IMG/VR virus record: IMGVR_UViG_3300037827_000551
Span: 1 to 64,000 of that record
Reading direction: 5' to 3' (one strand)
Length of the DNA stretch: 64,000 nt
Source: a virus
Positions 10,717 through 63,847 of the stretch are shown here, piece after piece. The translations under genes and the position numbers were made by a program. The number at the start of each line of letters is the position of its first letter. Position 1 is the first letter of the stretch. The notes below the pieces were generated by a model. That model was given only the letters and a program-made list of their open reading frames with translations. It did not search any database and was not told the DNA's origin.

Positions 10717-11178
10717 GTGAATACAAGGTCGATCTTCAGTATTTGATTTTGGAATGGACTGCGATTGAAGCGGAGGAGCGCGAGAAAGGAAGGTCTGACT
10801 ACCTAAAGCTTGTGAATGCGACCATCAACAGGCTATTGGAGTCCGCCACCTACGAAGAACTCCAAAAATTTGGAAAAATTACCCAGGCATGAATTCTGGA
10901 TGGGCACACGGAAAAGCCATGACAAAACGCCAAAAGAGAAGAGAGCGGCTTGCTCAAACTTGCGAGGGGATCGCCAAGCGAGGCAATCCTGAGATGGGGA
11001 TCAAGCCATGGAGGAGCGAGATTGCAATGGAATTGCGAGCGACGAATCGTAGGATTGAGATGAAGAAATCACGAGCGTAAACCGACCTCGGAAAGACCTC
11101 ATGAACGCCTACAGTCGTTACCGTATTGACTGGGCTCGTGCTGGCAACTTGGAACCAACCCTAACCCGAAAGGACCCC

Positions 11179-11491: not shown

Positions 11492-12607
11492 ATGCCCGTG
11501 AAGTTTGCGAGACTTAGATTTGGCCGAAATCGTCCCAAGACGCTGCCTCGTTGGCATTTCCACAATTACACCACCAGGGGACTCCTTGCCGCTCCGCCCG
11601 CAACCGAGGACTGGTCAGCGGCGGCGACGGCGTCATTGAGCAATATCTATCTGAACGATCAACTCGGCAACTGCGTGATCGCAGGTGGATATCATCAGGT
11701 CGGCCTTTGGACCGGCAATGCGGGCGATCTATTTCTAGCTACTGACGCTCAGATCATAAGCGATTACTCGGCCATCGGCGGTTACGTCCCAGGAAATCCG
11801 GCAACCGACCAGGGCTGTAACGAGCAGACCGCCCTCGGCTACTGGACATCAACCGGATTCGCGGATGGGTCGAAGCTTGCGGGATGGATGGGTGTCGACG
11901 CGACCCAGCCAACTTTGATTCAGCAGGGCATCTACCTTTTCGAGTCGAGTTACTACGGCCTCGAATTGCCAGACGAGTGGACCAATCCCATGCCGCAGCA
12001 AAGCGGCTTCATCTGGGACGTGGCTGGAGAACCAAACCCCGAGCAAGGCCATGCCATCATGGCGATTGGCTACACGGCTGAAGGTGTCGTGGTTGACTCG
12101 TGGGGCATGACTGGCCTCGTGACATGGGCGGCACTGGCCAAGTACATGGTTACGTCAGCCGGCGGCGAAGCGTACGTCTTGGTGAGCGAGGACCAACTCA
12201 ATAAAGCCCAGGCCAAGGCGCCAAATGGTTTTGACTGGACGACCCTGATCTCGGATTTCGATAGTCTCGGCGGTAATCTCCCGGTGCCGAATCCAACGCC
12301 AGTGCCTACACCGGTGCCTCCAGCGCCAACACCAAGCCCCACGCCGACTCCAGTGAATCCGCCAACGCCGATTCCGCCCGGCCCAGTGCCAATACCGACG
12401 CCAACGCCAACGCCCGTTGTGGTCCCCGACATCGGCATCTTTTTGGCGTCCAAGACAATCCAGTTGAATGCACCGCTGAGCCCAACGGGGGCGCCATGGG
12501 TGATCGAGGATAACGAGAACCCCCTGTACAAAAACCTAGTGAGAGTCAACCTTTCTCGGCGAGCCGTCGTGGTTCCCGAAGGGTGGGAAGCGGCCAAGAA
12601 ACCCTGA
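11492..12607 (+). CDS. Papain-fold (C1/C39-like) cysteine peptidase + Pro/Thr linker + small beta domain; candidate endolysin
   Basis: LNDQLGNCVIAG (Cys), GHAIMAIGY (His), DSWG; (PT)n linker. Confidence 0.75.
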   Translation: MPVKFARLRFGRNRPKTLPRWHFHNYTTRGLLAAPPATEDWSAAATASLSNIYLNDQLGNCVIAGGYHQVGLWTGNAGDLFLATDAQIISDYSAIGGYVPGNPATDQGCNEQTALGYWTSTGFADGSKLAGWMGVDATQPTLIQQGIYLFESSYYGLELPDEWTNPMPQQSGFIWDVAGEPNPEQGHAIMAIGYTAEGVVVDSWGMTGLVTWAALAKYMVTSAGGEAYVLVSEDQLNKAQAKAPNGFDWTTLISDFDSLGGNLPVPNPTPVPTPVPPAPTPSPTPTPVNPPTPIPPGPVPIPTPTPTPVVVPDIGIFLASKTIQLNAPLSPTGAPWVIEDNENPLYKNLVRVNLSRRAVVVPEGWEAAKKP

Positions 12608-12656
12608 TCCAAGAGCGTTCTGGTGGGCCACCGACCGGCCCGGAGAAGCGGTGGCG
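12603..12656 (+). repeat. Post-stop direct repeat / hairpin element, copy 1 (copy 2 at 14707-14777)
   Basis: TGATCCAAGAGCG..CTGGTGGGCCACCGACC...GGTGGC follows the stop codons at both 12607 and 14712. GCCACC pairs with GGTGGC. Confidence 0.75.
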
Positions 12657-12700
12657 CCCACACTGGAAGCAAGTCCTCCGCATCTGAGAGGCGGAGGCAC

Positions 12701-12806
12701 CGGCGAGGGTTTTGGGAGCCTACGGGGGTGACGAAATCGACTCTCTATTGGCTTGAGGCGAAGATTAGACTACCCGTGCTGCCGGTTCGACTCCGGCACT
12801 CGCCGA
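12701..12806 (+). ncRNA. tRNA-like structured RNA (acceptor + T-arm mimic)
   Basis: CGGCGAG pairs with CTCGCCG; canonical T-arm GCCGG-TTCGACT-CCGGC; internal ACGGG/CCCGT stem. Confidence 0.55.
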
Positions 12807-12810
12807 TTTA

Positions 12811-12962
12811 TCGGAAGCGGCGTGGCGATATGACACGCGGAATGTATGGTGCCAGCCTGATGACTTCCTGGTGTGGCCCGTAAGCGGACATCGCAACCGA
12901 CAGTGAGCCAAGATTGCAACTTGGCGAGAACACACCAGCCGGGCTAGGACCGGCCTTCCGAG
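12811..12962 (+). ncRNA. Expanded tRNA-like structured RNA (~150 nt)
   Basis: TCGGAAG/CTTCCGA 7-bp terminal stem, D-like arm GCGTG-9nt-CACGC, T-like arm GCCGG-7nt-CCGGC, large internal arms (GGAA/TTCC, TGGTGT/ACACCA, GCCAAG/CTTGGC). Confidence 0.55.
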
Positions 12963-12980
12963 AAAACTATAAGCAAAACT

Positions 12981-14195
12981 ATGTCGCTCCAAACTATTCA
13001 CATCCCTGGCCTCAACACCGACGTTCGCGTTCAGGATCGCGCCTCGCTGCGATCGACACAGAAGACGCGGAAACAGATCATTCCGGTTCACAAAGTCGTC
13101 TCGATGCCATCTGTGGCACTAGGGGCCATCTATTCAGATATGGCAGCATGGCCAACGGCCCCAACTTCATTCATGTGGGCACCGTCCGCCGTTTACGGTC
13201 TCGATGGCAATGGAACTTACGGCAACTGCCAGCTCTGTGCGGGGATACACAGCGACCAGTTGATGACCTTGGCGGCGACCGGCGTTGAATCGCAATTCGA
13301 TCAAGCGGCGATCATCGCCCAGTACCTGCAAGTTACTGGTGGCCTGGACATCGGATGGAACGAATTCAATCTTGTCTATCAGTGGGAAAACATAGGTCTT
13401 GGCGGTAATCCGGACGCCCTGATTCTCGACTCGATGGATATCGATCCGACGGACACAGAAACCGTCAAGGCCGCATTGTGGTTCTTCGGCTCGGTCATCT
13501 GGAACGGGCAACTTGCGCCGCAGTGGCTGACGGGATTTAAACCAGGGGAGACATGGAATGCTGGAGCGGGGATCGATACCAACCCGAACCTCGGACACGC
13601 TGTCATTCTCACTGGAGTACAACCAAATGGAAATTACGGGATGGCGACCTGGGGAGCCAGTGGGTATTTTGAACCTGCCGCTGTCGCGATTAGTGACCCC
13701 GACATCTTCGTCAACTTGTCCTGGCGGTGGTTCAACCGCCAGGGATACGCTCCCAACGGAGCCCACTACACGGCCGTTTCTCCTCTCTGGACGGCATTGG
13801 GCGGCCGAGTGCTTCCCGCAAGCCCGTTCCCGCCGCCGAGCCCGACTCCAGTCCCTACACCGACTCCAACGCCTCCAGCAACCGTAGATGTGGGCGTATT
13901 CGTCGGGCCCAAGCAAGTGCACATTGCTGGCTCGGGTTGGACGATGACAGACAATGTCCCATTGGATCAGGGTAGACTGATCAAGATTAACTGCGGGGCA
14001 CGTACGGTGCACGGCCAGAAAGGCTGGACCCAAACGGCCACGGCCACCGGATTCGATGTTGGAATCGATATCGCGGGTCAAAAGGTTCAAGTGCCTAACG
14101 GGTGGAGTTTTAGCCCCGTGGCGCCGGCGGGAACCGTAGTCATTTATTATGAGGTCAATCATGTGCAAGCACCTCTAGGATGGATCAAATCATGA
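12981..14195 (+). CDS. Second papain-fold cysteine peptidase paralog + PT linker + duplicated C-terminal beta domain
   Basis: GNGTYGNCQLCA, GHAVILTG, ATWG; PT linker; DVGVFVG/DVGIDIA repeats resemble DIGIFLA in the paralog. Confidence 0.72.
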   Translation: MSLQTIHIPGLNTDVRVQDRASLRSTQKTRKQIIPVHKVVSMPSVALGAIYSDMAAWPTAPTSFMWAPSAVYGLDGNGTYGNCQLCAGIHSDQLMTLAATGVESQFDQAAIIAQYLQVTGGLDIGWNEFNLVYQWENIGLGGNPDALILDSMDIDPTDTETVKAALWFFGSVIWNGQLAPQWLTGFKPGETWNAGAGIDTNPNLGHAVILTGVQPNGNYGMATWGASGYFEPAAVAISDPDIFVNLSWRWFNRQGYAPNGAHYTAVSPLWTALGGRVLPASPFPPPSPTPVPTPTPTPPATVDVGVFVGPKQVHIAGSGWTMTDNVPLDQGRLIKINCGARTVHGQKGWTQTATATGFDVGIDIAGQKVQVPNGWSFSPVAPAGTVVIYYEVNHVQAPLGWIKS

Positions 14196-14415
14196 GTACC
14201 CATGAAATCCTAAAGTGGATGGGGTGGGAAAAACAGTTCGGCTCGCGTTCCCATGGATTTGATGGAGCGTGGACCAAGTGTTTGGACGTATCAAGACGTA
14301 ACTTCTGACTCGGTTTTAACGGGAGATCGCAGTGCCAAAACCCAGACCTCCCAAGCATGTTCCGCATCGACCCTGTGCTTTATACCTCCGTTTCCGAAAA
14401 GAGAAAGGCCGCCAC

Positions 14416-14712
14416 ATGAGCACCGCCATCGCAACCGCAAGCCCGGTCATATCAGGTGACCAGGTCACATCGCGAGGATTTTTCTTCACCCAGAACGCCA
14501 ACGTTCTCCCAGTGGTAACCGTCGGCCCCACGTCGAACACGGCTTCGATTCCCTGTGTTCCTGGCGACGCCATCACATTTTACGTGATTGATACCAACGT
14601 GAACGGGCCATCCGTCGCGTCAAACGTGGTCAGCTCAACCGACCCATTCCCGCCGCCCACCGGCGTTCCGACAACGCCGACTGCGTTAACCCTGACATTT
14701 ACCGACCCTTGA
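14416..14712 (+). CDS. Small Ig/FN3-like Thr/Ser/Pro-rich protein
   Basis: AAAGG RBS; CVPGDAITFYVIDTNVNGPS resembles CEVGDVISVEVIDSNREGDS of 15954-16268. Confidence 0.6.
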   Translation: MSTAIATASPVISGDQVTSRGFFFTQNANVLPVVTVGPTSNTASIPCVPGDAITFYVIDTNVNGPSVASNVVSSTDPFPPPTGVPTTPTALTLTFTDP

Positions 14713-14801
14713 TCCAAGAGCGGGACCTGGTGGGCCACCGACCATGCCGTGAGTTGGACTCGGCAAAACTGGTGGCATCTATCAATTAACTGAGGTTTTA
14801 A

Positions 14802-15107
14802 ATGGGTGTGGATATCCCCGATCTCCCTGGATGGCGAAAAGGCAAGCCACCATACCAGGGTTGCTGGTTCGTGAAATCCAAGGACGGATCGGTCGACATC
14901 GCCTATTTACAGGGCGACCTCTGGATTCACAGTTACGCCAGGAACTGGCTAGACAGATCGGTCGACATCACCTATTTACAGGACGCCCCCGCGATTTCCG
15001 AGGACGATCCAGTCGTCTACTTGCTGAAGACCGGAAGACTTGGGTTGATCTCGGAAATCATCGCCTTCGCTCCAATCCAATGGCCAGATGGGGAGCCACC
15101 GGAATGA
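14802..15107 (+). CDS. Hypothetical protein carrying an in-frame 69-bp duplication/insertion
   Basis: GAGG RBS; DGSVDIAYLQ...DRSVDITYLQ internal duplication. Confidence 0.65.
   Translation: MGVDIPDLPGWRKGKPPYQGCWFVKSKDGSVDIAYLQGDLWIHSYARNWLDRSVDITYLQDAPAISEDDPVVYLLKTGRLGLISEIIAFAPIQWPDGEPPE
14883..14988 (+). repeat. Repeat-spacer-repeat: 37-bp direct repeats around a 32-bp copy of 48091-48122
   Basis: R1 14883-14919 and R2 14952-14988 (4 mismatches); spacer 14920-14951 matches 48091-48122 at 30/32. Confidence 0.85.
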
Positions 15108-15108
15108 C

Positions 15109-15957
15109 ATGGGAGTGGATACCACTGTGAGTGAATTACCAGAATACAGCCAAACTCAATATGAAGTGAACTTGTTGCGACACGAAGTGAACTTATTGCG
15201 ACACGAAGTGAACTTATTGCGACATCAACGCGACAGAGCGCTGGCCATGCTAGCCCGAACCGAGAAGGAGCGCGAAGAGATTCGGAAAGAGTTAGCTGAA
15301 TCAATGGAGGGTGATGTGTCGCTCATCTCGGATTACGCGGATATTCGCACGGCTCACATCCAATCGTTGGCTGAAATCGAGATGCGCGACCGAGAGATTG
15401 CCAACCTGGCCAAGCAGCTCGAAAGCGAGCGAGAGTGCCGTCAGTCCAAGCTCGTCATTATTGAAGAACAGCAACTCAACGCCAAGCAGGCTGAGCGGAT
15501 CGCGGGGCTGCTCGGGACGATCAAAGCGGCAGTCGAGTCGCTGGGTCGAGTGCGGGAATTTTACAGTAAGACCGGATTGCCGTTTTCGTTTCCAGCGACA
15601 TGCGAATCAGTACGACAAATTCTCAAAGCCGAGTTGGGCCGCAAGGTGGGCGCGGAGATCTTGCGGCGGCGTGATCTGATTGACCCACCAGTAAACCTCA
15701 AATCCGATCGACTTAAGCTCTCGGTGGACTGGGCACGAGACGGAGAGGACGAGAGCGTGTTTCTGGTCACGGCGACATTGGACAACAACACAACCAGAGT
15801 ACTCGCAACTGGGTCTTTCCCGGCGGATGCCTTGACTGTTAGCGAGGAGTCACGCAACCCAATCACTGGCAACCCGGCCGGAACTGACACAGAAATGGTA
15901 AGGTTGCCAGACGGAGTGCTAGTGCAAGAGTGTCATGACAAGGAATCGCACCGATGA
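15109..15957 (+). CDS. Coiled-coil hypothetical protein with a 21-bp tandem repeat
   Basis: EVNLLRH x3 (GAAGTGAACTT(G/A)TTGCGACA at about 15163-15224). Confidence 0.65.
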   Translation: MGVDTTVSELPEYSQTQYEVNLLRHEVNLLRHEVNLLRHQRDRALAMLARTEKEREEIRKELAESMEGDVSLISDYADIRTAHIQSLAEIEMRDREIANLAKQLESERECRQSKLVIIEEQQLNAKQAERIAGLLGTIKAAVESLGRVREFYSKTGLPFSFPATCESVRQILKAELGRKVGAEILRRRDLIDPPVNLKSDRLKLSVDWARDGEDESVFLVTATLDNNTTRVLATGSFPADALTVSEESRNPITGNPAGTDTEMVRLPDGVLVQECHDKESHR

Positions 15958-16268
15958 ACGTCCCCGCAAAGCCATCTGTCCGAATCCACTTCTACGCCAA
16001 GCCCGGTATGGTCGACGGCAGCAAGCACTGCACGGTTGAGTTGAGTTGGGTTAACCGCCAGGACAATGTCCAAGTGCGGAATGTCGCCGTGACAACCAAC
16101 ACCGATCTAACACTCCACTTTGGCTTGTCGCCCAATCAGTACCATTGGTCATTTGCATGTGAAGTCGGTGACGTGATCTCAGTCGAAGTCATCGATTCCA
16201 ACCGTGAAGGCGACTCGGAACCAGGGCAGGCCGTTGAGACTTGTCCAGAAAGGACCAGCAATGAGTGA
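15954..16268 (+). CDS. Small Ig/FN3-like protein, paralog of 14416-14712
   Basis: ATGA overlap; shared C-x2-GD-I...VID-N-G-S motif. Confidence 0.6.
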   Translation: MNVPAKPSVRIHFYAKPGMVDGSKHCTVELSWVNRQDNVQVRNVAVTTNTDLTLHFGLSPNQYHWSFACEVGDVISVEVIDSNREGDSEPGQAVETCPERTSNE

Positions 16269-16318
16269 GTGGCGAATTCAGTTCATCAGTCATTCGCGAG
16301 ATCGACGGAGGATAGAAC

Positions 16319-16558
16319 GTGAGCAATCCCCGAGCTATGGTCGTAGCCCTGGACACATCCGCCGAGGATGAGCGGTACGACGTATTTGTTTTCCATGGTG
16401 ATTATGGTCCAGCATACCAGGAGGCCCAGAATTTCTATGTGATGCGGATGATGACTGCAAAGGATAAAAATTCTGTCAATTTGTATCGCATTGGGGAATG
16501 GTTTGAAAAAACAGTGAATCAAGAGAAAGCACCGCACAGTGCTGGAAATGATGGATAA
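16319..16558 (+). CDS. Small hypothetical protein
   Basis: GGAGG RBS, GTG start. Confidence 0.55.
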   Translation: MSNPRAMVVALDTSAEDERYDVFVFHGDYGPAYQEAQNFYVMRMMTAKDKNSVNLYRIGEWFEKTVNQEKAPHSAGNDG

Positions 16559-16715
16559 TCCGTTTGGTGGTGCACCAGAAAACTCGCCATCTCCTGGCCA
16601 CTTGGACCGTGAGGAAAAGTGGAATCTTGATCAAGACTGGTGTTTGTCGGAGCCAGCCTGTAGGGAAATCTGACTCGTCGTGTGCTCAGACGACGTTAAA
16701 TAAACAGGGCGTTAT

Positions 16716-16811
16716 GGGGTGCTGGCGAAATGGCAAACGCTACCTTTACCAAAAGGGTGTCCGGAAAACCGGCCGGTGTAAAACTTCCTCGTTCGAGTCG
16801 AGGTCGCCCCA
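16716..16811 (+). tRNA. Atypical or degenerate tRNA, apparent anticodon CCA (Trp), long variable region, no encoded CCA end
   Basis: GGGGTGC/TCGCCCC acceptor (6 of 7 pairs), D-arm GCG-AAATGGCAAA-CGC, anticodon stem ACCTT/AGGGT with loop TACCAAA, T-arm CCTCG-TTCGAGT-CGAGG. Confidence 0.55.
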
Positions 16812-16962
16812 TTTGCTTGTACGGATATCTTCGGTTACACCCATAGCCGAGGGGCAGACTACCCGTGCAAACAAGCCCCCGCATTGAGGTCTGTGGGTTC
16901 CCGTATGTGCACTGCGTGGTCTCTGGGAACTAAATAGGCACAGATTTGTGTCAATGCGGGGT
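16812..16962 (+). ncRNA. Two long stem-loops downstream of the tRNA-like gene
   Basis: GCTTGTACGG...CCGTGCAAACAAGC; CCCCGCATTGA...TCAATGCGGGG enclosing TCTGTG/CACAGA and GTTCCC/GGGAAC. Confidence 0.5.
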
Positions 16963-16982
16963 TTATATATACGAGGTGAACA

Positions 16983-17435
16983 ATGGCAGAGATTAACGCC
17001 AGTATGCGGGTTGCGGCCTACGCATCCGATAGCGGAAAGCCGCTTATGGGTATTAAGGTATCAGCCCCCGGATTCCTCGGTGGCGATGTGATTCCTCCTG
17101 GGATGACCGATGACGAAGGTCAATGTACACTTCGTTGGCATGGTGACAATCATGGGGCTAGAGTGTTCAATGGCGAGGTCTTTTTCGTTGATTCCCGCTA
17201 TCACTTCCGACAGACTTCGATCGAAGTAAGCCAAACCGAAGAAAACGACCCAGAAGTCTTTGCGGCGACACTTGAACCAATCGTGAGACCAACATCTCCA
17301 ACGAAGACGGTCCAATTTGTCTTCTCGGTCGACGACGCCCGCAAACTTCTGGCCTCGCTCGCCACGAGCACGCCGTTGGCACCGGAAGTGGCCAAGAGAA
17401 TTTGCCTGATGATTGGGTCGAGGTTACCAGAATGA
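16983..17435 (+). CDS. Hypothetical protein (carboxypeptidase-regulatory/prealbumin-like beta sandwich)
   Basis: GAGGTGA RBS; DSGKPLMGIKV...MTDDEGQC pattern. Confidence 0.6.
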   Translation: MAEINASMRVAAYASDSGKPLMGIKVSAPGFLGGDVIPPGMTDDEGQCTLRWHGDNHGARVFNGEVFFVDSRYHFRQTSIEVSQTEENDPEVFAATLEPIVRPTSPTKTVQFVFSVDDARKLLASLATSTPLAPEVAKRICLMIGSRLPE

Positions 17436-17553
17436 CTATCAATGGATCATGGCTCGATGTCGCCTACGAGGCTTTTGACTTGGCCTGTCACCGCTACGCG
17501 TCTCCACTTGAATTGGAATGGCTGTGCGGACAGGAATACGAGGTGGCAGAATC

Positions 17554-17850
17554 ATGAATCGCCGTAAATTCTTCGCCATGGCCTCGGTGCCGGCAGTCAC
17601 ACCGCTCCCGAGGATTGCGTCCGATCGAGCACGGTGGCGAAATACCAAGGACCGTTGGGAGCTGCTCGACCCCAATGGCGACCTTCTTGGAATCGTGAGC
17701 CATCCGACGCAGTACGGCTTCCACGTGGCAGCGACGACCCGTGAACCGGCTGTGTGCCGCTATGATTTTAGGGATTGCCGTGAGGCCAAGCGGTGGCTTG
17801 TGAAACAGATCTGGTATCCTGGGTGCAAGCCGCCGCTGGAGGGGATATGA
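17554..17850 (+). CDS. Hypothetical protein with twin-arginine-like N-terminus
   Basis: GAGGTG RBS; MNRRKFFAMASVPA. Confidence 0.6.
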   Translation: MNRRKFFAMASVPAVTPLPRIASDRARWRNTKDRWELLDPNGDLLGIVSHPTQYGFHVAATTREPAVCRYDFRDCREAKRWLVKQIWYPGCKPPLEGI

Positions 17851-17866
17851 AGGACAAGGAGAACTC

Positions 17867-18190
17867 GTGAACCCAATTGTGCCGCCCACCGCCGAGATGT
17901 CGTGGCAGCAAGTTGCCGTCTGGATTGGCTTTTATGTCACGCAAGCGCTGATCGCCTGGATGATGTACAATAACCACAAATTGATGAACTCAAGGCTCTC
18001 TGAACTCCAAGAAGAGACCAAGAAAGCCTCGCACGCCGAGGGAATGGCCCAAGGAACCGAGATCGAACGCCTGCGTTCCGGGGACATGTTGGCCGCGAAA
18101 GTCGTCCCGGTTCCCGAAGTCACACAGATCATCGAACGGCACGGCAATGGTCCAAATGAACGCCACGAGGAAATCAAGGGGGAAGCATGA
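17867..18190 (+). CDS. Single-TM membrane protein, holin-like
   Basis: AAGGAG RBS; one TM helix, then HKLMNSRLSELQEETKKASHAEG. Confidence 0.6.
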   Translation: MNPIVPPTAEMSWQQVAVWIGFYVTQALIAWMMYNNHKLMNSRLSELQEETKKASHAEGMAQGTEIERLRSGDMLAAKVVPVPEVTQIIERHGNGPNERHEEIKGEA

Positions 18191-26350: not shown

Positions 26351-26857
26351 TCAGGCTCCAACCTGAATCATTTTTTCAAGGCATTCGAGACAGTTGGCCC
26401 GGATCTCGGCGGAGGACGTGGCGGACTCGGCGTCGCCCTTGGCACACTCGGTGGCGTACCAGGCGGCGCACTTGGCGGCGTACTCGGCGGAATTGGTGGT
26501 GTACTCGGCGTACTCGGCGGACTTGGCGGACTCGGCGGCGTACTTGGCACACTTGGTGGCGTACTTGGTGGCGTACTCGGCGGCGGACTCGGCGGCGGAC
26601 TCGGCACACTTGGCGTACTTGGCGGACTCGGCGGCGTGCTCGGCCGCGTACTCGGCCGCAATTTCCGCTCTTGCAACCATGCACGCCAGATCACACCTTG
26701 TCCCGACGATTCGCGGAATAAACGGCTTCAAGTCATCGCGGTGATTCGCGAATAATTCCGAGTCGTTGAGCTGAGTTACGTATACCCCGATTACAGGGCA
26801 TACGCTCCCATCTCCACCAGCGAGCCGGTCGTCAGTCTGGCTTTTGATCGTCGTCAT
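26351..26857 (-). CDS. Chimeric copy of gene 18-617 with the first 7 codons of gene 26900-27112
   Basis: High nucleotide identity to about 135-590; N-terminal MTTIKSQ identical to the upstream gene. Confidence 0.8.
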   Translation of the reverse strand: MTTIKSQTDDRLAGGDGSVCPVIGVYVTQLNDSELFANHRDDLKPFIPRIVGTRCDLACMVARAEIAAEYAAEHAAESAKYAKCAESAAESAAEYATKYATKCAKYAAESAKSAEYAEYTTNSAEYAAKCAAWYATECAKGDAESATSSAEIRANCLECLEKMIQVGA

Positions 26858-29056: not shown

Positions 29057-29356
29057 ATGAGATGCTGCGACAAGGAGGCAAAGTACCAAGTTACTCCGGA
29101 ACATGTCCTCGAATACGTCTACAGTCGCCGCGCCACCATGACCGTCATTGAGTTTCAAGACCAAGTCATAGCCTCGGTTAGCGTCTTGGACGGACTGATC
29201 AATGCCCATGAAATTGGTATCTTTGGGGCTGTGGAGTCCTGTCTAAAGCAGGAGGCCACCCTTATCGCCCAGGGCAAGATCACAGGTGGGACATCGGTTG
29301 GCGATCGGATTTTGGCTGATCATCGGGATATGCCGAAGCTGGAGGTGGTCTCGTGA
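29057..29356 (+). CDS. Hypothetical protein
   Basis: GGAGG RBS; packed ORF. Confidence 0.55.
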   Translation: MRCCDKEAKYQVTPEHVLEYVYSRRATMTVIEFQDQVIASVSVLDGLINAHEIGIFGAVESCLKQEATLIAQGKITGGTSVGDRILADHRDMPKLEVVS

Positions 29357-29739
29357 TCCCATTCGCCATTTTCGCCACAATCTCATTCGCCGTCTGGTTA
29401 ACCCTCTGGGGCCTCGATCGCTTGCCATGGCGGCGATCCGCCATCCCAGATCCAAAGGTTGATCCAGGGCCATCGATCTCGCTGACGCTCAGTGGGGCGA
29501 CGACATCTTGGACTAACGACACCCGCTTCACAGTCACGGGCCTTACCTCGGCGGTAATGACAATAAAGACGAGTGATACGGGATTCACGATTCTAAAGCC
29601 GGACCCGATCACGCCGGCCCCATTTTTCGGTGACGGCCGCACGATCAATCATGTCCGCGATGGTGATACACCTACGACGATCCCGGGATGGGCGTCGACA
29701 CCGTTCTACCTCGGCGGTAATGACAATAAAGACGAGTGA
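29353..29739 (+). CDS. Membrane-anchored protein with an IPT-like fragment and a 36-bp direct repeat
   Basis: N-terminal TM helix; ISLTLSGATTSWTNDTRFTVTG resembles [18 protein letters not shown] of the 2378-aa protein. Confidence 0.55.
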   Translation: MIPFAIFATISFAVWLTLWGLDRLPWRRSAIPDPKVDPGPSISLTLSGATTSWTNDTRFTVTGLTSAVMTIKTSDTGFTILKPDPITPAPFFGDGRTINHVRDGDTPTTIPGWASTPFYLGGNDNKDE

Positions 29740-29742
29740 TAC
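29544..29742 (+). repeat. Exact 36-bp direct repeat TACCTCGGCGGTAATGACAATAAAGACGAGTGATAC (29544-29579, 29707-29742)
   Basis: Identical copies separated by 127 bp. Confidence 0.9.
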
Positions 29743-40755: not shown

Positions 40756-41203
40756 TAACCCCATCAGCCCTGATTCAATGAAAAAGGGCGTCGCGTCGAT
40801 CCAAAAGCCAACGGAACCTCTACGGCTTGGGCATTCGGAAGAGAGGTTGCCCGGTTCGGGCTACAGCCCGAAGAACCTCTGTTTCTACGAGCATGTTTCG
40901 CCAAAGTCGATTATGATCGGCGGTCGAGTCGTCGCGACCGGCGAAGTGATTGCGATCACATCGGAAAAGGAAATCCCCAGCAAATTCTCGCTACAGCCCG
41001 ACTACCTTTCCACGAGCCGGGCGAGCGAATTGATCAAAGGGAAGTTCGGCCGCGAACATCCAGGCCCGGCGACGGTCTCGATTCGCAGGCCAGATGTTGA
41101 GGATGTGCTCAAGAGTTACGGGTTCCAGCCCAAGAGCCTGATGGGCAATCGCATGACCGTCGCACCCCCGGAGGCCGTGAAACAGAAAGCGGGGGCGTTT
41201 TGA
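40748..41203 (+). CDS. Hypothetical head-region protein
   Basis: Packed ORF after the capsid gene. Confidence 0.6.
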   Translation: MPDNPISPDSMKKGVASIQKPTEPLRLGHSEERLPGSGYSPKNLCFYEHVSPKSIMIGGRVVATGEVIAITSEKEIPSKFSLQPDYLSTSRASELIKGKFGREHPGPATVSIRRPDVEDVLKSYGFQPKSLMGNRMTVAPPEAVKQKAGAF

Positions 41204-41451
41204 TGAGTGTGAATTGTGGCAAAGTTCTGCCGCTTGGTTCGGTTCACCACTCTATCCACACCGATTACTGGTTCGGCGACACAGTCTATCTCAGGGTTCG
41301 CTCCGATCGCCACAAGGGGATGATCATCGGCATCCGTCTTTGGCCCGACGGCCTGGCTTACAATGTCACGTGGGGTTACAGTGGAGCCGAAACGCCGCAT
41401 TATGGGATGGAGTTGACCTCGGAGTTCGAGTCGGATTTGGGGGTTATTTGA
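41200..41451 (+). CDS. Small SH3-like phage protein
   Basis: FGDTVYLR...GMIIGI..P.G..Y.V.W...HYGMEL. Confidence 0.6.
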   Translation: MMSVNCGKVLPLGSVHHSIHTDYWFGDTVYLRVRSDRHKGMIIGIRLWPDGLAYNVTWGYSGAETPHYGMELTSEFESDLGVI

Positions 41452-41720
41452 TGCCAGGGAATGGACCAGCGCCAACAGGGCAAAAGCCGTCGCCGCCGCC
41501 AGCACCGCCATTGCCGAAGAATTTGACCTATGGGATTCAAGTGACGAACCGAGAAATCAACGCTGTGCCAGCAACGCCTCCTGCCCAATCATGGAAGCCC
41601 ATGGCTCGTTTGCCGCAGATCGACCCGATGGTTATGCTGGAGTTATTGAAGGCCGGCGTGATGACCAAGGACGAGGTTCGGGAGAGGCTGGGGCTGTCGA
41701 AAGAGAGCGAGAAGTCATGA
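41451..41720 (+). CDS. Pro-rich small protein; its first 38 nt are the source of the insert at 62677-62714
   Basis: TGATG overlap; MPGNGPAPTGQKP; C-terminal AGVMTKDEVRERLGL is portal-like. Confidence 0.6.
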   Translation: MPGNGPAPTGQKPSPPPAPPLPKNLTYGIQVTNREINAVPATPPAQSWKPMARLPQIDPMVMLELLKAGVMTKDEVRERLGLSKESEKS

Positions 41721-46299: not shown

Positions 46300-49200
46300 A
46301 TGAGCTGGGTTTTCGTACAGCACGCATTCCAGGGTGGCACCGCCTCGCAGGCATCGGTCACGCTCGCTATGACCAGTGTCGTCGTCGGCGATCTTCTGAT
46401 TGCCACGGTCTCGTTCTTCACCGGCACCCACACACCGTATTCGCTCAGTGATTCGAGCGGTAAGAACACGTGGACCGCCGGAGTTCTCCAGGGCATAACG
46501 ACAAACGTGTGCGTCCAGGAATGGACAACCATTGTCCAGTCCGGTGGCGGCGGATCGATCAACGTCGAGGTCCAGACGGCATCCAGTACCGACTTCATGG
46601 GCTTGAACGTCGACGAATATTCCTTCCTCCAGGGCGCCACGATCACACTCGGGACGCTCGCCCATGCAACCGGCGCCTCACCCACGGCGATCTCCAGTGG
46701 CAACGTGAGTTGGACCGGAACCGGCAATTTCCTCCTGTGGGGGGCGGCGGCATCCGCGAACGCGACGGCCACGTGGTCCGCCGGCACCAATTTCAACCTT
46801 CGCTGCAATCAACCGCATGCCACGGGCTACGAAGCCCTGATGACCGAGGATCAACTCAATCTCACGTCGGCCGCATCGCCGATCCCAATCACAGCCGGGT
46901 CAACGGCGACTTCCGGAGACTGGGTGGCGATCGGCCTCGCATTTTTAGAAACGCCAGCGATCGCGATTACACCGGCCACCGTCCCCGCCAACCATTCCGG
47001 GCACATCACGCTCACCCTGGTCGGAACGGGGACGTCGTGGCTTGGCAGTCCGACCTGGACCGTCACTGGGGCCGGAACCTCGTATGTCGCCGGGTCGGCA
47101 ATCGTTACCACGAATACGGCCGCGACGATCAAGGTGACGACGTCTGGCTCGACGGGGCTCGCGACGGTCTCTGACGGCACGTTTTCCGGTCAGTTCACCG
47201 TCGCCACGGCAACCCTCTCTGTCGTGCCGGCGGCCGTTGGGACAAGTGTGACAACCAGTCTTACGTTAACCGGAACGAACACGCTCTGGACAACCGAGAC
47301 GGCGTCAACCCTGTTCTCGGCGTCAGGCGTCTCGGGAACATCGATCACTGGGGCGAGTATCACTGTCTCGTCCAATACGGCCGCCACAGCCAATCTCGTC
47401 AGCGGTTCGACTGTCGGCACCGCGACGATCACCGACAATAGCACGACAGCCACGGATACGGTTGTTGTCGAGGCCAATTTCCCAACGATCACGCCGAGTC
47501 CGACGATTGTTCCCGTGGGCATCGGCACAACGAATTACGCAACTTTGCCCAGCAGCTTGGCATCGTCGCCTGTTCTGGTCACCCTGGTCGGATTCAACAC
47601 GGGCTGGACCGGCGGCACGACATTCACCGTTTCTGGGGTTGCTGGCTGCTCGGTCGTCGCGGCATCGACAGTTATTACCTCGGCGACCCTGGCTTCGTTC
47701 TGGCTCGAAACGGCTAAGGCTACGGGCACGCTTACGATCACCGACGGCTCCTATGAGTGCACAATCCAGGTCGTTCCCGGAGCGATTGTCGGGCAGGCTT
47801 ATGTATGCCGAAGTGCCGAGACCTTATATTTCTTTACCTATCCGGCAACCGACGCTCCGCTGACGCTTGCTGGCACCTCATCAAGTCAGTCGCTAACCTA
47901 TGCCATCGTCAATACGACGACCACTAACGGCGGCACTGGTTACACCAGCCCCATCGCCTCGATCGTCGGCGGCGTTTCGATCACTCTGACGGCTGGCGGC
48001 ACAGGCTATGGTTCGGCTCCGACCGTGGAAATCACCGGTGGTGGCGGCACGGGCGCCAGTGCGACCGCCCTGATCTCGGATGGAGCCGTCTCTGGATTCA
48101 CGGTTACGCCTGGAACTGGCTATCAGTCGGGCATGCCGATCACGATCACCATGATCGGCGTCGGCACGGGGGCGGCAGCCACGGCGACAGTTATTGCCAA
48201 TGGCGGTACTGGATGCCAACTGGGCACACCGATCGTGTCCGCCGGAGTCATCACTGGGATTCCAGTTGTAACGACCGGCAGCGGTTATACGGGCGCTCCG
48301 TCAATCACGATCACTGATTCGACAGGAGTGGGAGCCACAGCGACACCGATCTTGGGGGGCAATCCACTCCTGATCACGGGCGGCACCATGAACCCGGCCG
48401 CTCCGATCACCGCGATCAACGGCGTACCCACGATCAAGGTCAATGGCAATTCCGTCGAAGTGCCTTTGTATATTAACTCTTATCCCATCAGCAATCCCGG
48501 AACGGCTTACGCTTCAGCTCCAATTGTAACCGTATCTGGGGGCACGGGCACCGGGGCGGCATGCACGGCGGCGATCACGGTAGCAGGCCAAGCCAGCCTC
48601 CTGCTGACCAATGGCGGTAGCGGGTATACGACTCCGCCAATCGTCACCCTGAATGCCAGTTCGTCCGGCTCCCCGGCTGTGGTTCAGACCTTCATCGCTG
48701 GTGGCGCGGTCGTCGGCTTCCGCGTCACTCAGTCGGGCACCTACGCTACGACACCGACAGTGACGATCACGGGTGGTGGCGGTGGCACGGGACTGGCCAT
48801 TACCGCATCAAACGCCGTGGGCTGCGTTTATTCAATCACGGCGTCATGTATCGGAAGTAATTATCTATCGACGGACACGATCACAGTCTCGGTGGCCGCC
48901 GGGGCGGGCACAACAGCCGTGGCGAACTCGCTCATTGGGCCGATCTGGGGAAGCCAGTCCCTGAGTGCCCCATTCGTGGCCTATCAGACCATGTGCGGCG
49001 GCGTGGCGTCTATCGTAGTTCAAGCCGGAGGTAGCGGTTACACCAATCCCACGGCGACGGCCAGTGGAGGCGGAGGAACCGGTCTCGTACTGGGAACGCC
49101 AATCATCGCTGACGGCGTGATCACCTCAGTTTTGGTGTCGGGAACTGGACCTGTTTCCAATCAAGTCGGCATCGTCGATGCCAATGGGACGGGCAGCGGG

Positions 49201-52200
49201 TTCGTTGGCTATTACAACAGTGTCGCCAATTCAATCACTTCGGTCACGATCGAGAATGGTGGAGCAAATTACTCGGCTTCGGGTAGCCTGACCGCCAAGT
49301 CGATCACCTCGAATACGAGCCAGGGTGACGTCGCATCGAACCCAGTTTATAGCACCGTTACCCCATCCAACGGTGTGATCGTCTCAATCCCCGTACTGTC
49401 TCCCGGAATTGGGTACACCTCGGCCCCGACGATCACTATCACCGACCCCGGCGGAAGCGGTTCAGGGGCCGTCGTCGTGCCGATTATGACCGGGCCGGCG
49501 GCGACCGATACGGTCACGTACTCGGCCCCAGCGGGATGGCTATCCACATCGGTCGGTACGGTGCCGGCAGCGACGAATGCCCCGGTTTACAATTTTGGCG
49601 GATCGCTTGAGCCCGCATTTTCGCAAGCCCCTGAAACCATGCTCATGGGCATGAACATTAACCCACTCTATGGTTACGGGGCCGGCAAGAATATCAATCA
49701 AAGCTGGCTCAAATGGGCTCTTAACTGGACCGGAGCAACGGCTCCGATTTCGGCGACGACACAGCTAAGCGGGGCACTCTACTCGATCGCTGGAGCCACA
49801 ACCACAACCGGAACCCCGACGACGCTCACGTTCGCGTCAGCTCCGACAGTCAGTATCGTCAACCACTACGTTTGGTTCCCTGGAGATTCGTCAGGCGGAA
49901 TCTACTTGATCGCGTCAGGATCAGGGACCTCGTACACGATCTCGCCCGGATTTGGCGGTAGTGCTGGCCTTTCTGGAATCACCTGCCAGATCGTGCCAGC
50001 AACTTCACTGGCGGTCTACAACGGGGCATCCGACACGGCGGGCGGTGGCGCGATTATCACGGCGACTGTCAATGGATCAGGGGTGATCACCAGCTATACG
50101 GTTCTCTATGGTGGCTCGGGATACACAGCGACACCAAAGATATTTGTGCCGCCTCCGGTTTCCGGGGGAACCCAAGGTTCGGCGACGGCGACCATGTCGG
50201 GTGGGTCGGTGACGGCGGTCGCGGTCAACACAGCGGGAGCCGGGTACACGAATTCAATGCTCAGTAGTTATCCGATGGCAATCGCCACGGTTGTTAGCGG
50301 ATCGGCGACCGTCACGTTTTCGGCATCTCAGGCCAGCCTTATCGGCAACTACATCTGGTTTTCGGGCGATTCGAGCGGAAGCCTTTATTCGGTTACGGCG
50401 GGCAGCGGCTACTCCTGGACGATTAGTCCGGTATTCGCTGGCAATTCCGTCGCGGAGACACAGGCTTTTATCTCCCCCAAGACCAACATCGTGGCCTATA
50501 ACGCGGCCTCGGATATCACGGGTGCGGGGGCCATCATCGCGGCGACCGTGAGCAGTGCCGGAGCAATCACTGGGTTTACGATCCAATCGGGCGGTGGCAA
50601 TTACACGACGGCTCCGTCGATTCAACTACCGGCACCGGCATCGGGCGGATCGCAGGCTTCGGCGGGAACGGTGACCGTTTCAGGCGGCGGGATTACAAAC
50701 ATCGCGGCCGGCACGCCTGGTTCTGGCTATGCGGGATCGACGGTCGATGGCCACCCGATCGCAATCAACGGAACTACGAATCCACAAGGAGCCGCATCAA
50801 CTCCAACGGCTTACACGGTATTCGCCGATACGGGTCACTCGCAAACCACGGGAACCACGGCGGCTCCATTGCCAGATCTCTCGGGGGTCTGGACATTCAC
50901 CGCCAGCGAATCGAATCCCAGTTCTCCAATGACGGCGACGGTCTACTCGGGAACAACGCCGATCACGGCGGTTCCGGTGAGTGGACCGAATATCGGTGGT
51001 GTCGTCAGCAAGACATGGCAATTTACGGTTCCAAGGAATATCCCTGGATTCTCACTTGTTCTTCTGACTGAAGGCTCTGGATATACCGGCACGCCGACAG
51101 CCGCATTCACGGGCGGCGGTGGCACCGGAATGACCGCCACAGTGCTGACAAATGCGGCCGGAAATGTGATCGGCCTAAAATTAACCTCGATCGGCACCGG
51201 GTACACGTCGGCTCCAAGTGTGGCGATCTCGGGGGCTGGAACCGGAGCGACCGCCCAAGTCTTGGCTTTGGGAAACTCGCAGCTCAATCTCTCGCTGGCG
51301 ATTGCCGGGCCATCGGCCGGGGCAGGTTCGGCCTACACACTCTCTAATGAGTTAATGGTCGCCCCTGTTCGCGGTACGGGAGCGGCGGCGGTTCCAAATC
51401 AGTCGAACCTGATGGCGCCCGACGTCAACATGGTGTCGTGGTTGTCGTTGCCCAATGGTTCGGGAGCGGCAACTCTTCGTTGCTGGCCGATGCAGAACAA
51501 CGCCTGGTACACGAATGTTGTTGATGTCAGTGATCTTCGTCCAGAAAACGATTTCACGTGGGCCGATGGAACTCAAAGGAATACCGCATTCACGGTCACG
51601 GCGATCAGGCAGTACCAAGTTTCCACGTCTCCTTATGTGTTCACGTCGAATAGCGGATATGCTCCAGCGAATACCACGGGCTATCCCGGCACGATGAGCA
51701 GTTCCGGCATCGCTGGAGCACCACTTTCCAATTGCTGGACGCCAGCGAATATCCAGTGGGCCGGATTCGGGTTTAGCGGCAACACTTGCATCGTCGCCGA
51801 GTTCGTCACCGCAGCGGCACACGGACTTCGCACCGGTCAGGTCATCACGTTTCCGGGCACTCCTTGGCTTGCGACACTGCCGGTATTTGATGCCAATTTC
51901 AACTCGGGGGCAGGGCGGAATATCGTCACCTCGCTTTCGGGAATCACTGTGACAGCCTTTGTGACCGGTGCCAACACGTTCGCCATTGGATTTAGTGCCA
52001 GTGCCAGCGTGATCACATCGGGTACTAATTCGGCCTACGTGATCGGCAATATTCCGTGCAACTTCGATGTGTCGATGGTATTCGAGCCGTTCTTCGAGGC
52101 TCCCCCTGTCGAAGCGTTCGTCGGCCTCTGTAACGCGGTTCCTGGTTGTGCTCTGCATATTTTTGTGCCCGACTTCGCGACCGACGCCTGTACGGCGGCG

Positions 52201-53436
52201 ATGGCTCAGCGGATTCGCGACTCGCTCGACGTCGGCCGTGATGTTTATATCGAGACCCATAACGAGCACTGGAATTCGGGCGGCTACTTCGTGCAGTATA
52301 TGGCCGCTTTCCAGATGGCCAATCTTTGCTCGGGATTCGCCTCAATCATTGGGTCGACCGGCAATGCGAACAACGATTTCTACACCTATGACTCGGCCCA
52401 CAAGCAGCAAATTTTCATAAACGTATTCAATCAAGAGGATATCAACGGCAATACCAATCGCGGCGACTCGATCGTGGGCGTTTTCGGAGCTCAGGCCACG
52501 GCGTCAAGCTCGGCCACGGCAATGGTTGCTTACGCCAACCGATTTAACGCCACGTCACCCGCGACCCCCGTGCAGATCGACGCCATCATGGCGGCCCCGT
52601 ATTACAATATTCCGACGGACCTGCCGATCGCCCAAGTGGCGGCGATGACCTATTCCAACTACCAGGGGAGCCTTCAGTATCAGTGTCTGACGCCATGGAC
52701 GATCGGTATGTATATCGACTTGTTCAGACACTATGCGCTCTATTGCTTGGCGGATAATATCGCGTCCCCGGCGAGCGCAATCCCGAATTACAATCTCAGT
52801 TTGGTTCCTGGACAGACCGTCCCCCCATTCATGATGTGCTATGAGGCCAGCGTTCAAATCCTGGTCTACACCCCGGTTTCAGTCACCGACTGGAGCATGC
52901 GAGGATATGTTGCCCACGACATGTATTTTCACCCCTACTTCGCTGACTTGAACCAAGCCTTTTATTTAGGCGTTCAGCAATCCGGAGCGAAAATCATGTG
53001 CTGCTTCGAGTTGTGCGCCCAGCGGTTCGCCGAAAACACGAACACGGCATTCACGCTCGTCCAGGGCGTACCAGACGGCTTTGGAGCGACCGTCGCCTGG
53101 GGCTTCGTCACCTGGGAAGGTATGGCTGCCGGTCGCGGAGATGGGACGCTCGACGAGAACGGTAATGCGACCGTCAATCAGTTTTTCAACAACGGCAACA
53201 ACACGGGTGGCATCGCCCAGGACCTGGACAACGTCTCGCCAAAGCTTCAGAGTTGGCGGAATTTCGCCGAAGCGGCCAACCCGATACCACCTCCTCCAGC
53301 GGGAAGCGGTGGCGGCGGCATCGCGGGACCTACCGAGGCTCAGCTCGCCATGGTGGCCTATCTGGGCAACATGCCACGGCGACGGCGGAAGAAATTCGGC
53401 GGCAAGATTCGGGGCGGGATGACCTTCTACGAATGA
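46300..53436 (+). CDS. Giant virion appendage protein: beta/IPT-like domains, GGSGY(T)-P repeats and a fragmented clan GH-A-like hydrolase domain
   Basis: Many (T/N)GG(S/T)GYT.AP.V...GG.G.GA.A repeats; [23 protein letters not shown] and MCYEAS motifs. Confidence 0.75.
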
Positions 53437-62422: not shown

Positions 62423-62576
62423 TCTGGGGCATGTAATACGGTTCCAGTTTCGGCGAATGGTTCGGTTTCCCCGCATGTAGATCGGGGACCGAGAGCCGCT
62501 CGATGATGAGCGACGCCGCGATAACCGAGGTGGCAAGCACAAGCCCGACGGCAAGGCACTGGATCATTCCACGCAT
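62406..62576 (-). CDS. Small membrane peptide
   Basis: GAGGAG RBS; MRGMIQCLAVGLVLATSVIAASLIIE. Confidence 0.45.
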   Translation of the reverse strand: MRGMIQCLAVGLVLATSVIAASLIIERLSVPDLHAGKPNHSPKLEPYYMPQITKVR

Positions 62577-63031
62577 TTCCGATTCTCCTCAATAAGCCCA
62601 AGAGCCGTTCTTAAGCACTCTTCCCCAAGTCTGACACAGTCAAATGAACGTTTCTCGCATTCATTGCATCTCTGGGATGCCAGGGAATGGAACAGCGCCA
62701 ACAGGGCAAAAGCCTCAAATGAACGTTTCTCGCATTCATTGCATCTCTGGGGGCAGACCCAAGATGGGTTACCGATGATCGCGGCTACATCTTGGGCGGT
62801 CGCAGTTTCCAGGTTTAACTGTTCAAGTTTGGCGAAGATGTCATCGCTGCGCTCGTCACCCAGTACTTCAACATCTTGTGGGTACTGCGATTTCCACCGC
62901 GATGCCACCGACCGGACTTGCTCTCGCTCATTCATGATTTGCACGCTATCGACTCCATCAAGAACCTGGGTGATCGACCGAAGATTTTCCGATCGGCTTT
63001 TTTCGACCGCCGTCGAGGTGGCATGCGACAC
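62564..63031 (-). CDS. Zn-finger phage protein carrying an in-frame 75-bp duplication/insertion
   Basis: RWKSQY...AAIIGNPSW..CNEC; QRCNECEKRSF duplicated. Confidence 0.7.
   Translation of the reverse strand: MSHATSTAVEKSRSENLRSITQVLDGVDSVQIMNEREQVRSVASRWKSQYPQDVEVLGDERSDDIFAKLEQLNLETATAQDVAAIIGNPSWVCPQRCNECEKRSFEAFALLALFHSLASQRCNECEKRSFDCVRLGEECLRTALGLIEENRKCVE
62640..62751. repeat. Repeat-spacer-repeat: exact 37-bp direct repeats around a 38-bp copy of 41451-41488
   Basis: TCAAATGAACGTTTCTCGCATTCATTGCATCTCTGGG at 62640-62676 and 62715-62751; spacer matches 41451-41488 at 37/38. Confidence 0.92.
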
Positions 63032-63476
63032 AGGCTGATCTTGTCGCTTTGGGGTTGCCTACGGCATTGACGATAACTCCGACGAGTTGATCATTGAGAT
63101 AAAGTTCGTTGGTTATGGGGTCGAAACAATCGAAGCGGATCGCGTCACCGCAAATCGAGCACGACCTCTCTTTTGCAACCGTCATCATAATCCGTCCTAG
63201 TTCTGGTTTTGCCTGAATTTTCGCCCATTCCTTGAAAATCACGTCGGGATCAAAATTCGTATTATTGGCGGCATTGAACCGCACCACGACAGCCTTGATC
63301 TCTCGTTCCCACACTTCATACGATTTGAGAAAGTTGGCTTGGGACACGGGCCAGATCAGGGCGAATAGCTCGGTTTTCACTTGTTCGTGGATTCCGGACA
63401 CCATTGCCACTGGATTGCGATTGAAGCGGAGGAGTGCGAGAAAGGGATCAAACTGAGCGTCGTCGTCGATCCTCAT
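62958..63476 (-). CDS. Hypothetical protein with CxxC motifs
   Basis: GGAGG RBS; ATGA overlap with the PEP-CTERM gene; CSIC...CVAC. Confidence 0.6.
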   Translation of the reverse strand: MRIDDDAQFDPFLALLRFNRNPVAMVSGIHEQVKTELFALIWPVSQANFLKSYEVWEREIKAVVVRFNAANNTNFDPDVIFKEWAKIQAKPELGRIMMTVAKERSCSICGDAIRFDCFDPITNELYLNDQLVGVIVNAVGNPKATRSACVACHLDGGRKKPIGKSSVDHPGS

Positions 63477-63847
63477 TGCCACTTCCTCCACAAAAGCACC
63501 GCGCTCAATCCAATAGCCCACAGAACCCACGACGATGGTTCGGGAACGCCTCCGCCTTGTGGTGGGCCTGGCGGTGACGAAGACTGCGTCACGTGTCCTG
63601 GAGTCGACGGAGGCGGCTCGCTCGCGACGAGTGACTCCTTGATCCATTCGCCGAGCCGGGGATGATAGTGAGTGAATCGCAGGGGATTGAGTTCGTACCT
63701 GGCCTCGATATAGATCACAAATGGCGTGGACGGTAGGATGTCGCCGTGGGTCTCGCGATAGGCTTCGAGGACCTTGTTTTCGTGGGCCTCAAAACTCCGC
63801 GTGATCCACTCGGGGTTGAATTTGGGTAGCGGGTCAACTCGGGACAT
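63473..63847 (-). CDS. PEP-CTERM sorting-domain protein
   Basis: C-terminal VPEPSSWVLWAIGLSAVLLWRKWQ (VPEP + TM + basic residues); GAGGAG RBS. Confidence 0.85.
   Translation of the reverse strand: MSRVDPLPKFNPEWITRSFEAHENKVLEAYRETHGDILPSTPFVIYIEARYELNPLRFTHYHPRLGEWIKESLVASEPPPSTPGHVTQSSSPPGPPQGGGVPEPSSWVLWAIGLSAVLLWRKWQ

Follow-up and report, generated by a model that had tools for sequence, protein, structure and literature searches.

The occurrence, inside a phage gene, of two nearly identical 37-nt segments enclosing a short copy of another gene of the same genome raises the question of which process could have produced such an arrangement. The window that we analyzed, a stretch of 64,000 nt, takes up the first 64 kb of one virus contig of 83,518 nt, recorded as linear in IMG/VR and with a completeness estimated at 78% by CheckV. 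The contig encodes TerL, a portal protein, an S78 prohead protease and an HK97-type capsid protein, and most of its genes are orphans; a search for tRNAs along the contig found none. A tblastn search with the portal protein against INPHARED returned 1829 records, all below 60% identity, the best among the matches listed being 36–40%, and a blastn search with the region 13000–17000 against the same collection returned no match. Three pattern matches to TerL in viral_contigs and 31 to a 404-aa neighbour protein in metagenome_contigs were obtained, none of which was confirmed, and a 289-aa neighbour protein recovered itself alone among 3126 homologue candidates. The last 425 nt of the contig resemble its first 351 nt (1–351 and 83094–83444, 91% identity) as well as the gene at 26351–26857. 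A terminal repeat of the contig was considered and rejected, since self-BLAST identified the end overlap as a diverged paralogous stretch, 91% identical; its presence at both ends indicates that each end of the contig falls within a repeated gene. Beyond the window, a 28-nt motif with a TTGACA-like hexamer inside is common to 82807–82834 and 65112–65139 (27/28), two places otherwise unrelated, and may be a repeated promoter or operator.

The arrangement under study, hereafter unit A, lies on the plus strand and consists of a first copy of the duplicated target (R1, 14883–14919, codons DGSVDIAYLQGD of ORF 14802–15107), a 32-nt insert or "spacer" (14920–14951) and a second copy of the target (R2, 14952–14988). 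Four of the 37 positions separate R1 from R2, three as G/A and one as A/C, and each of these differences is nonsynonymous in ORF 14802–15107. Since the bases flanking the two copies are unequal and allow no extension on either side, the duplication is exactly 37 nt long. The insert matches positions 48091–48122, on the plus strand, at 30 of 32 positions. Over the two strands of the contig (83,518 nt), one given 32-mer is expected to find 4e-11 matches at this level or better by coincidence. This donor, or protospacer, lies within a giant ORF (46300–53436, 2378 aa) that matches PHROG families of head closure Hc2 and virion structural proteins. Since the C that ends R1 is also found just ahead of the donor, the unit can alternatively be split as 36+33 if this shared base is counted as insert; for the same reason BLAST reports the insert as 33 nt at 31/33. 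The repeat divergence, the donor match and the synonymous nature of both mismatches had been given in a preliminary description of the locus, and our recomputation returned the same values.

The donor stretch is in frame 0 of the giant ORF, and the two mismatches fall at third codon positions (ACG/ACA, Thr; CCT/CCA, Pro). In ORF 14802–15107, the reading frame of the insert is not that of the donor gene and gives LWIHSYARNWL. That both differences are synonymous indicates that they arose in a functional giant gene, either in a related donor phage or later in this lineage. The preliminary description had favoured the former, namely a donor allele from a related or ancestral phage. The two synonymous mismatches are consistent with that view, and a search of viral_contigs with the 32-nt pattern, in which the two variable positions were made degenerate, gave 0 matches and thus no contig carrying ACA/CCA; later synonymous drift of the donor gene in this lineage would fit the data equally well.

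Three rival explanations for unit A are an assembly artefact, a chance match or a native 23-residue tandem repeat of the encoded protein. As to the first, Logan contigs from two metagenomic runs read through the whole unit without a single differing letter or gap (X1, record 4, covering 14574–15348; X2, record 11, covering 14303–15027). The runs belong to two studies, of root and rhizosphere metagenomes; X1 may be the source sample of our contig and X2 is the independent one. The exact agreement of both contigs shows that unit A is not an assembly artefact, in line with the doubt already expressed on that origin. Neither a deletion joint nor an indel at unit A was seen in the Logan contigs of four runs (X1–X4), contigs of this kind dropping rare variants; among the listed pieces of X3 and X4 none bridges the unit, and X4, a slightly different strain, has no coverage of the site. 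An empty-site allele or a relative was likewise not found in the homologue, INPHARED, viral_contigs and metagenome_contigs searches or in the Logan contigs of X1–X4. More generally, contigs identical to parts of the region 12000–18000 occur in root, rhizosphere and leaf-litter metagenomes from three studies (X1–X3), and a fourth study (X4) holds the slightly different phage strain, with 5 differences in 255 nt.

The recipient ORF (14802–15107, plus strand) encodes a 101-aa orphan protein and is coding-like in composition. Its codon score, +0.164 per codon in the frame of the ORF, is negative in each of the other five frames, and its GC content by codon position (0.56/0.42/0.66) is like that of five annotated phage genes (0.53–0.61/0.39–0.45/0.64–0.71). 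The duplicated repeats accordingly look like ordinary coding sequence, unlike an imported CRISPR repeat. The insertion adds 69 nt, or 23 codons without a stop, in frame, as previously proposed. A period of 23 codons is also what a native tandem repeat would display, and a phmmer search gave weak, multi-stretch matches to long repeat proteins: at E ≤ 0.001, the HMMER scan of 1.84 billion representatives returned six proteins, that is the 101-aa protein itself and five long repeat proteins. We examined four of these five (P0003 was left out) and rejected them as homologues, given their heterogeneous Pfam content; they are repeat proteins of diverse kinds (cadherin-like, Flg_new, lipocalin-like), and pairwise comparison of the 101-aa protein with P0005 and P0006 revealed just short stretches of low identity. 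A separate homologue search retrieved, among three candidates, just the protein itself. Above all, the interior of unit A is unlike its repeats; its match, at 30/32 and in a different frame, is to the giant gene, which a native repeat does not account for. Together with the chance expectation of 4e-11 and the exact reproduction of unit A in the second study, this leaves native repeat, coincidence and artefact, even taken jointly, a very slight probability. Just past the recipient gene, ORF 15088–15957 carries, close to its start, three tandem 21-nt units (15163–15225), 90–100% alike, which encode EVNLLRH three times.

The genome-wide self-comparison proposed in the preliminary description yielded two clean units and one atypical candidate (63402–63483). 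A local scan for direct repeats over the whole 83,518-nt contig (seeds of 10 nt, spacing of 40–150 nt) gave seven repeats, of which, tandem coding repeats and palindromes aside, two have the layout described here, unit A and a second one, unit B (62640–62751, plus strand). Unit B, which had already been noticed as a repeat of equal length and unrelated sequence, is an exact duplication (37/37; copies at 62640–62676 and 62715–62751) that cannot be extended on either side and that encloses 38 nt (62677–62714) matching positions 41451–41488 of the plus strand at 37/38, for a chance expectation of 3e-16. The resulting gain of 75 nt is stop-free and in frame in ORF 62564–63031 (minus strand), whose codon score is best, narrowly, in its own frame and whose protein was, among 26 homologue candidates, its own only match. 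The donor of unit B starts at an ATG overlapping the stop (TGA) of ORF 41200–41451 (41449–41453); since the upstream part of the listed ORF 41214–41720 scores better in another frame, the real start of this gene is probably 41451.

Self-BLAST added one further dispersed match of spacer size, between 63411–63445 and 10755–10789 (33/35). This 35-nt fragment, on the plus strand of the candidate third unit, is bracketed by an exact 10-mer (63402–63411 and 63474–63483) with a period of 72, equal to 37+35, and is in frame in ORF 62958–63647 (minus strand), which adjoins the gene carrying unit B. The other 27 nt of its would-be repeats are no more alike than shuffled sequences (1853 of 5000 reach the observed score), and a 37-nt duplication was rejected for this candidate, its flanks beyond the exact 10-mer being alike only at shuffle level. 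The same contig also carries an exact 36-nt direct repeat (29544–29579 and 29707–29742), of which one copy lies within ORF 29353–29739 and the other at its end, at a distance of 163 nt; the reading frame differs between the copies, and the 127-nt interior is not spacer-sized.

A duplication of fixed length around a short foreign piece is what staggered cleavage followed by gap filling gives, and the use of the same 37-nt ruler in two events, at unrelated targets, is as predicted for an enzyme that measures length. The repeats of units A and B have 7 of 37 positions in common in either orientation, with a local alignment score below the shuffle mean; what is constant between the units is thus the length and not the sequence, as expected of a ruler applied to arbitrary targets. 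To our knowledge, the Cas1-Cas2 integrase is the only enzyme that combines a duplication of CRISPR-repeat length with a spacer-length insert and no homology at the junctions. Given the observed geometry, donors, unrelated repeats, coding context and reality of the DNA, we give somewhat better than even chances to the proposal that unit A is the scar left when a host Cas1-Cas2 with a ruler of 36–37 bp integrated a spacer off target (a "neo-CRISPR"), later filtered by selection for reading frame; here we infer the enzyme, the host, the timing and the action of selection on the frame. The ability of Cas1-Cas2 to integrate off target into non-CRISPR DNA is well documented, both in vitro for P. furiosus and within cells of E. 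coli (PMC7054753, PMC6698737, PMC11788318, bioRxiv 10.1101/148544, citing Nivala et al. 2018), and the literature also holds circumstantial indications for two more species.

In such a scenario, the host Cas1-Cas2 would have loaded, during infection, a spacer-sized fragment of phage DNA, taken from this phage or from a close relative infecting the same cell. Rather than the leader-proximal repeat of a CRISPR array, the complex would have attacked two phosphodiesters 36–37 bp apart, on opposite strands, within the gene at 14802–15107, and gap filling would have left a copy of the 37-bp target at either end of the 32-nt insert. Packaging of the genome bearing the insertion would have followed, the phage having survived the infection. 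We propose that the allele was kept since the 69 nt gained maintain the reading frame and contain no stop. A second, younger event made with the same ruler would have given unit B, unit A being the older one as judged from the differences between repeats (4/37 against 0/37). Both gains are multiples of three and stop-free, which suggests that events breaking the frame were removed by selection; by a rough estimate, the chance of an in-frame, stop-free gain would be about 0.2 per event.

The junctions bear on whether an integrase is needed at all. An error of replication or repair could have copied some 32–38 nt through a template switch of the MMBIR/FoSTeS type, in which the nascent strand returned upstream of its exit point, or could have captured a fragment at a staggered break. 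Donor and recipient being on the same replicating molecule is compatible with such an event, and a 1-nt identity is found at the exit junction of units A, B and the candidate third unit: in three of three cases the first repeat ends with the base that immediately precedes the donor (a G for unit B). The apparent 10-nt duplication of the candidate third unit is also what a loose process might give. However, in units A and B the homology is 1 nt at the left (exit) junction and 0 nt at the right (return) junction, a pattern that fits transesterification and not template switching primed by annealing. Moreover, an unmeasured slip does not predict two independent returns exactly 37 nt upstream, the inserts are in the range of CRISPR spacers, and no templated insertion of another size appeared in the self-comparison of the contig. 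We thus regard an error without integrase as unlikely, although it deserves more weight than the other enzymatic or array-based explanations considered below.

An enzyme other than Cas1-Cas2, be it an integrase or a transposase-like protein from phage or host, could also make cuts staggered by 37 bp and insert short fragments. The geometry requires staggered cleavage and fill-in, with which enzymes besides Cas1-Cas2 are compatible, and the contig is about 78% complete and made mostly of orphan genes. Transposons and casposons likewise duplicate their target directly through staggered cleavage and fill-in. However, known transposases and casposases make target duplications of about 2–15 bp and carry terminal inverted repeats, whereas here the duplication is 37 bp long, the insert is 32–38 nt long with no coding capacity, and neither unit has terminal inverted repeats. 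We know of no enzyme other than Cas1-Cas2 that pairs a duplication of repeat length with inserts of 30–40 nt, and we hold this alternative to be improbable.

The layout of the units calls for a comparison with CRISPR loci proper. A canonical CRISPR-Cas locus was rejected: each unit has two copies of its repeat, no further copy of repeat A or B with at least 70% identity exists in the contig, and Cas1 (PF01867) has no family match anywhere in it, at the CheckV completeness of 78%. Functional mini-arrays borne by the virus are a distinct case. Each would hold one spacer between repeats of host type, would be transcribed, would be processed by the Cas proteins of the host and would serve to exclude close competitor phages, the one or two mismatches to the carrier's own genome preventing self-targeting. 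The repeat-spacer-repeat layout and CRISPR-like sizes of our units are in agreement with this, and their imperfect self-matching spacers formally resemble the point mutations at the self locus reported for SPV1 and SPV2 (PMC6858448). R1, in addition, can form a 6-bp hairpin (-11.5 kcal/mol, z -1.67; folds at least as stable in 17 of 200 shuffles). Against a mini-array, R2 is 4/37 off R1 and does not form this hairpin (-3.7 kcal/mol), because three of the four differences break pairs without compensation, and the repeats of units A and B are unrelated. Both units are in frame in ORFs with coding signal, each of which scores best in that frame, and in the region 14200–15400 there is no promoter-like or terminator-like site; a leader is missing.

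The repeats were also compared with known CRISPR repeat families and with large sequence collections. Rfam, queried with both regions at E ≤ 10, gave four noise hits and no CRISPR repeat family. The cores of repeats A and B have 0 exact matches in viral_contigs and in genome_contigs (one genome for each of 185,579 species), and that of repeat A, the only one scanned there, has 0 exact matches in the 241 million metagenome records of metagenome_contigs; exact-match scans of this kind miss a diverged or unsampled host repeat. The repeats of virus-borne mini-arrays are described as identical or similar to those of the host (PMC11656645), and the SPV mini-arrays are intergenic and preceded by a leader (PMC6858448). 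With these mini-arrays (Medvedeva et al. 2019, PMC6858448; PMC11656645), the units described here share a single spacer, near-self in sequence, and a virus genome without cas genes. They differ in that their repeats are not host-like as far as searched, are unrelated between units and lie inside coding frames, in the lack of a leader or promoter-like site and, for unit A, in the non-compensatory divergence of the repeats. A functional mini-array appears to us less likely than off-target integration and, on its own, rather improbable.

Off-target integration by Cas1-Cas2 has its own difficulties. R1 and R2 have diverged more (4/37) than spacer and donor (2/32), which requires an extra assumption, either that the donor allele was already different or that units with diverged repeats survived preferentially. 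The ruler, moreover, is drawn from two clean events, the candidate third unit having no clean 37-nt duplication. As for sequence preferences at the donors, no trinucleotide is common in one register to the flanks of the two donors, or of three with the candidate, and no PAM can be derived from so few flanks; the preliminary description had likewise seen none clearly in common. That description, naming no mechanism, had proposed a recurrent process with a 37-bp target duplication of which only in-frame events survive. The lengths, donors, frames and unrelated repeats agree with this, every test being compatible with it, and we consider the proposal as partly supported overall.

The closest likeness is to the neo-CRISPR units produced by off-target Cas1-Cas2 integration (Nivala, Shipman & Church 2018, Nat Microbiol). 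As described in papers citing that work, and as here, a spacer-sized insert sits within a duplication of repeat length at a site outside any array, the repeat takes its sequence from the target, and the junctions are free of homology. In the phage contig we observe the corresponding features, namely a repeat-like duplication of fixed length (37 nt twice), a spacer-length insert derived from DNA present in the cell and junctions nearly free of homology. The differences, on the same account, are that those units formed in the E. coli chromosome under overproduction of Cas1-Cas2, whereas ours would be natural events in a phage genome, with inserts coming from the phage itself, placed in frame in coding genes and numbering two, perhaps three, in a single genome, and with an enzyme deduced from geometry. 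In the open literature that we searched, which includes papers on mini-arrays and on off-target integration in cells and in vitro, we found no report of natural off-target scars in phage genomes.

Taken together, these observations raise a broader proposal, whose chances we place at about even: that host CRISPR adaptation repeatedly wrote the DNA of an infecting phage into the phage's own genes, and that the phage survived and fixed these insertions. If so, CRISPR adaptation would be a natural mutagen of phage genomes, adding peptide insertions in frame, and spacer acquisition, besides recording phages in the host array, would occasionally edit the phage itself, leaving scars that are heritable and datable. 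Such events would also supply ready-made repeat-spacer-repeat units and could plausibly explain how mini-arrays borne by viruses, as well as new CRISPR loci, originate. Finally, the length of the duplication would report the repeat length of the host CRISPR system, so that for uncultured phages the scars would provide a handle, from sequence alone, on the CRISPR type of the host through its repeat length and the range of its spacer lengths.
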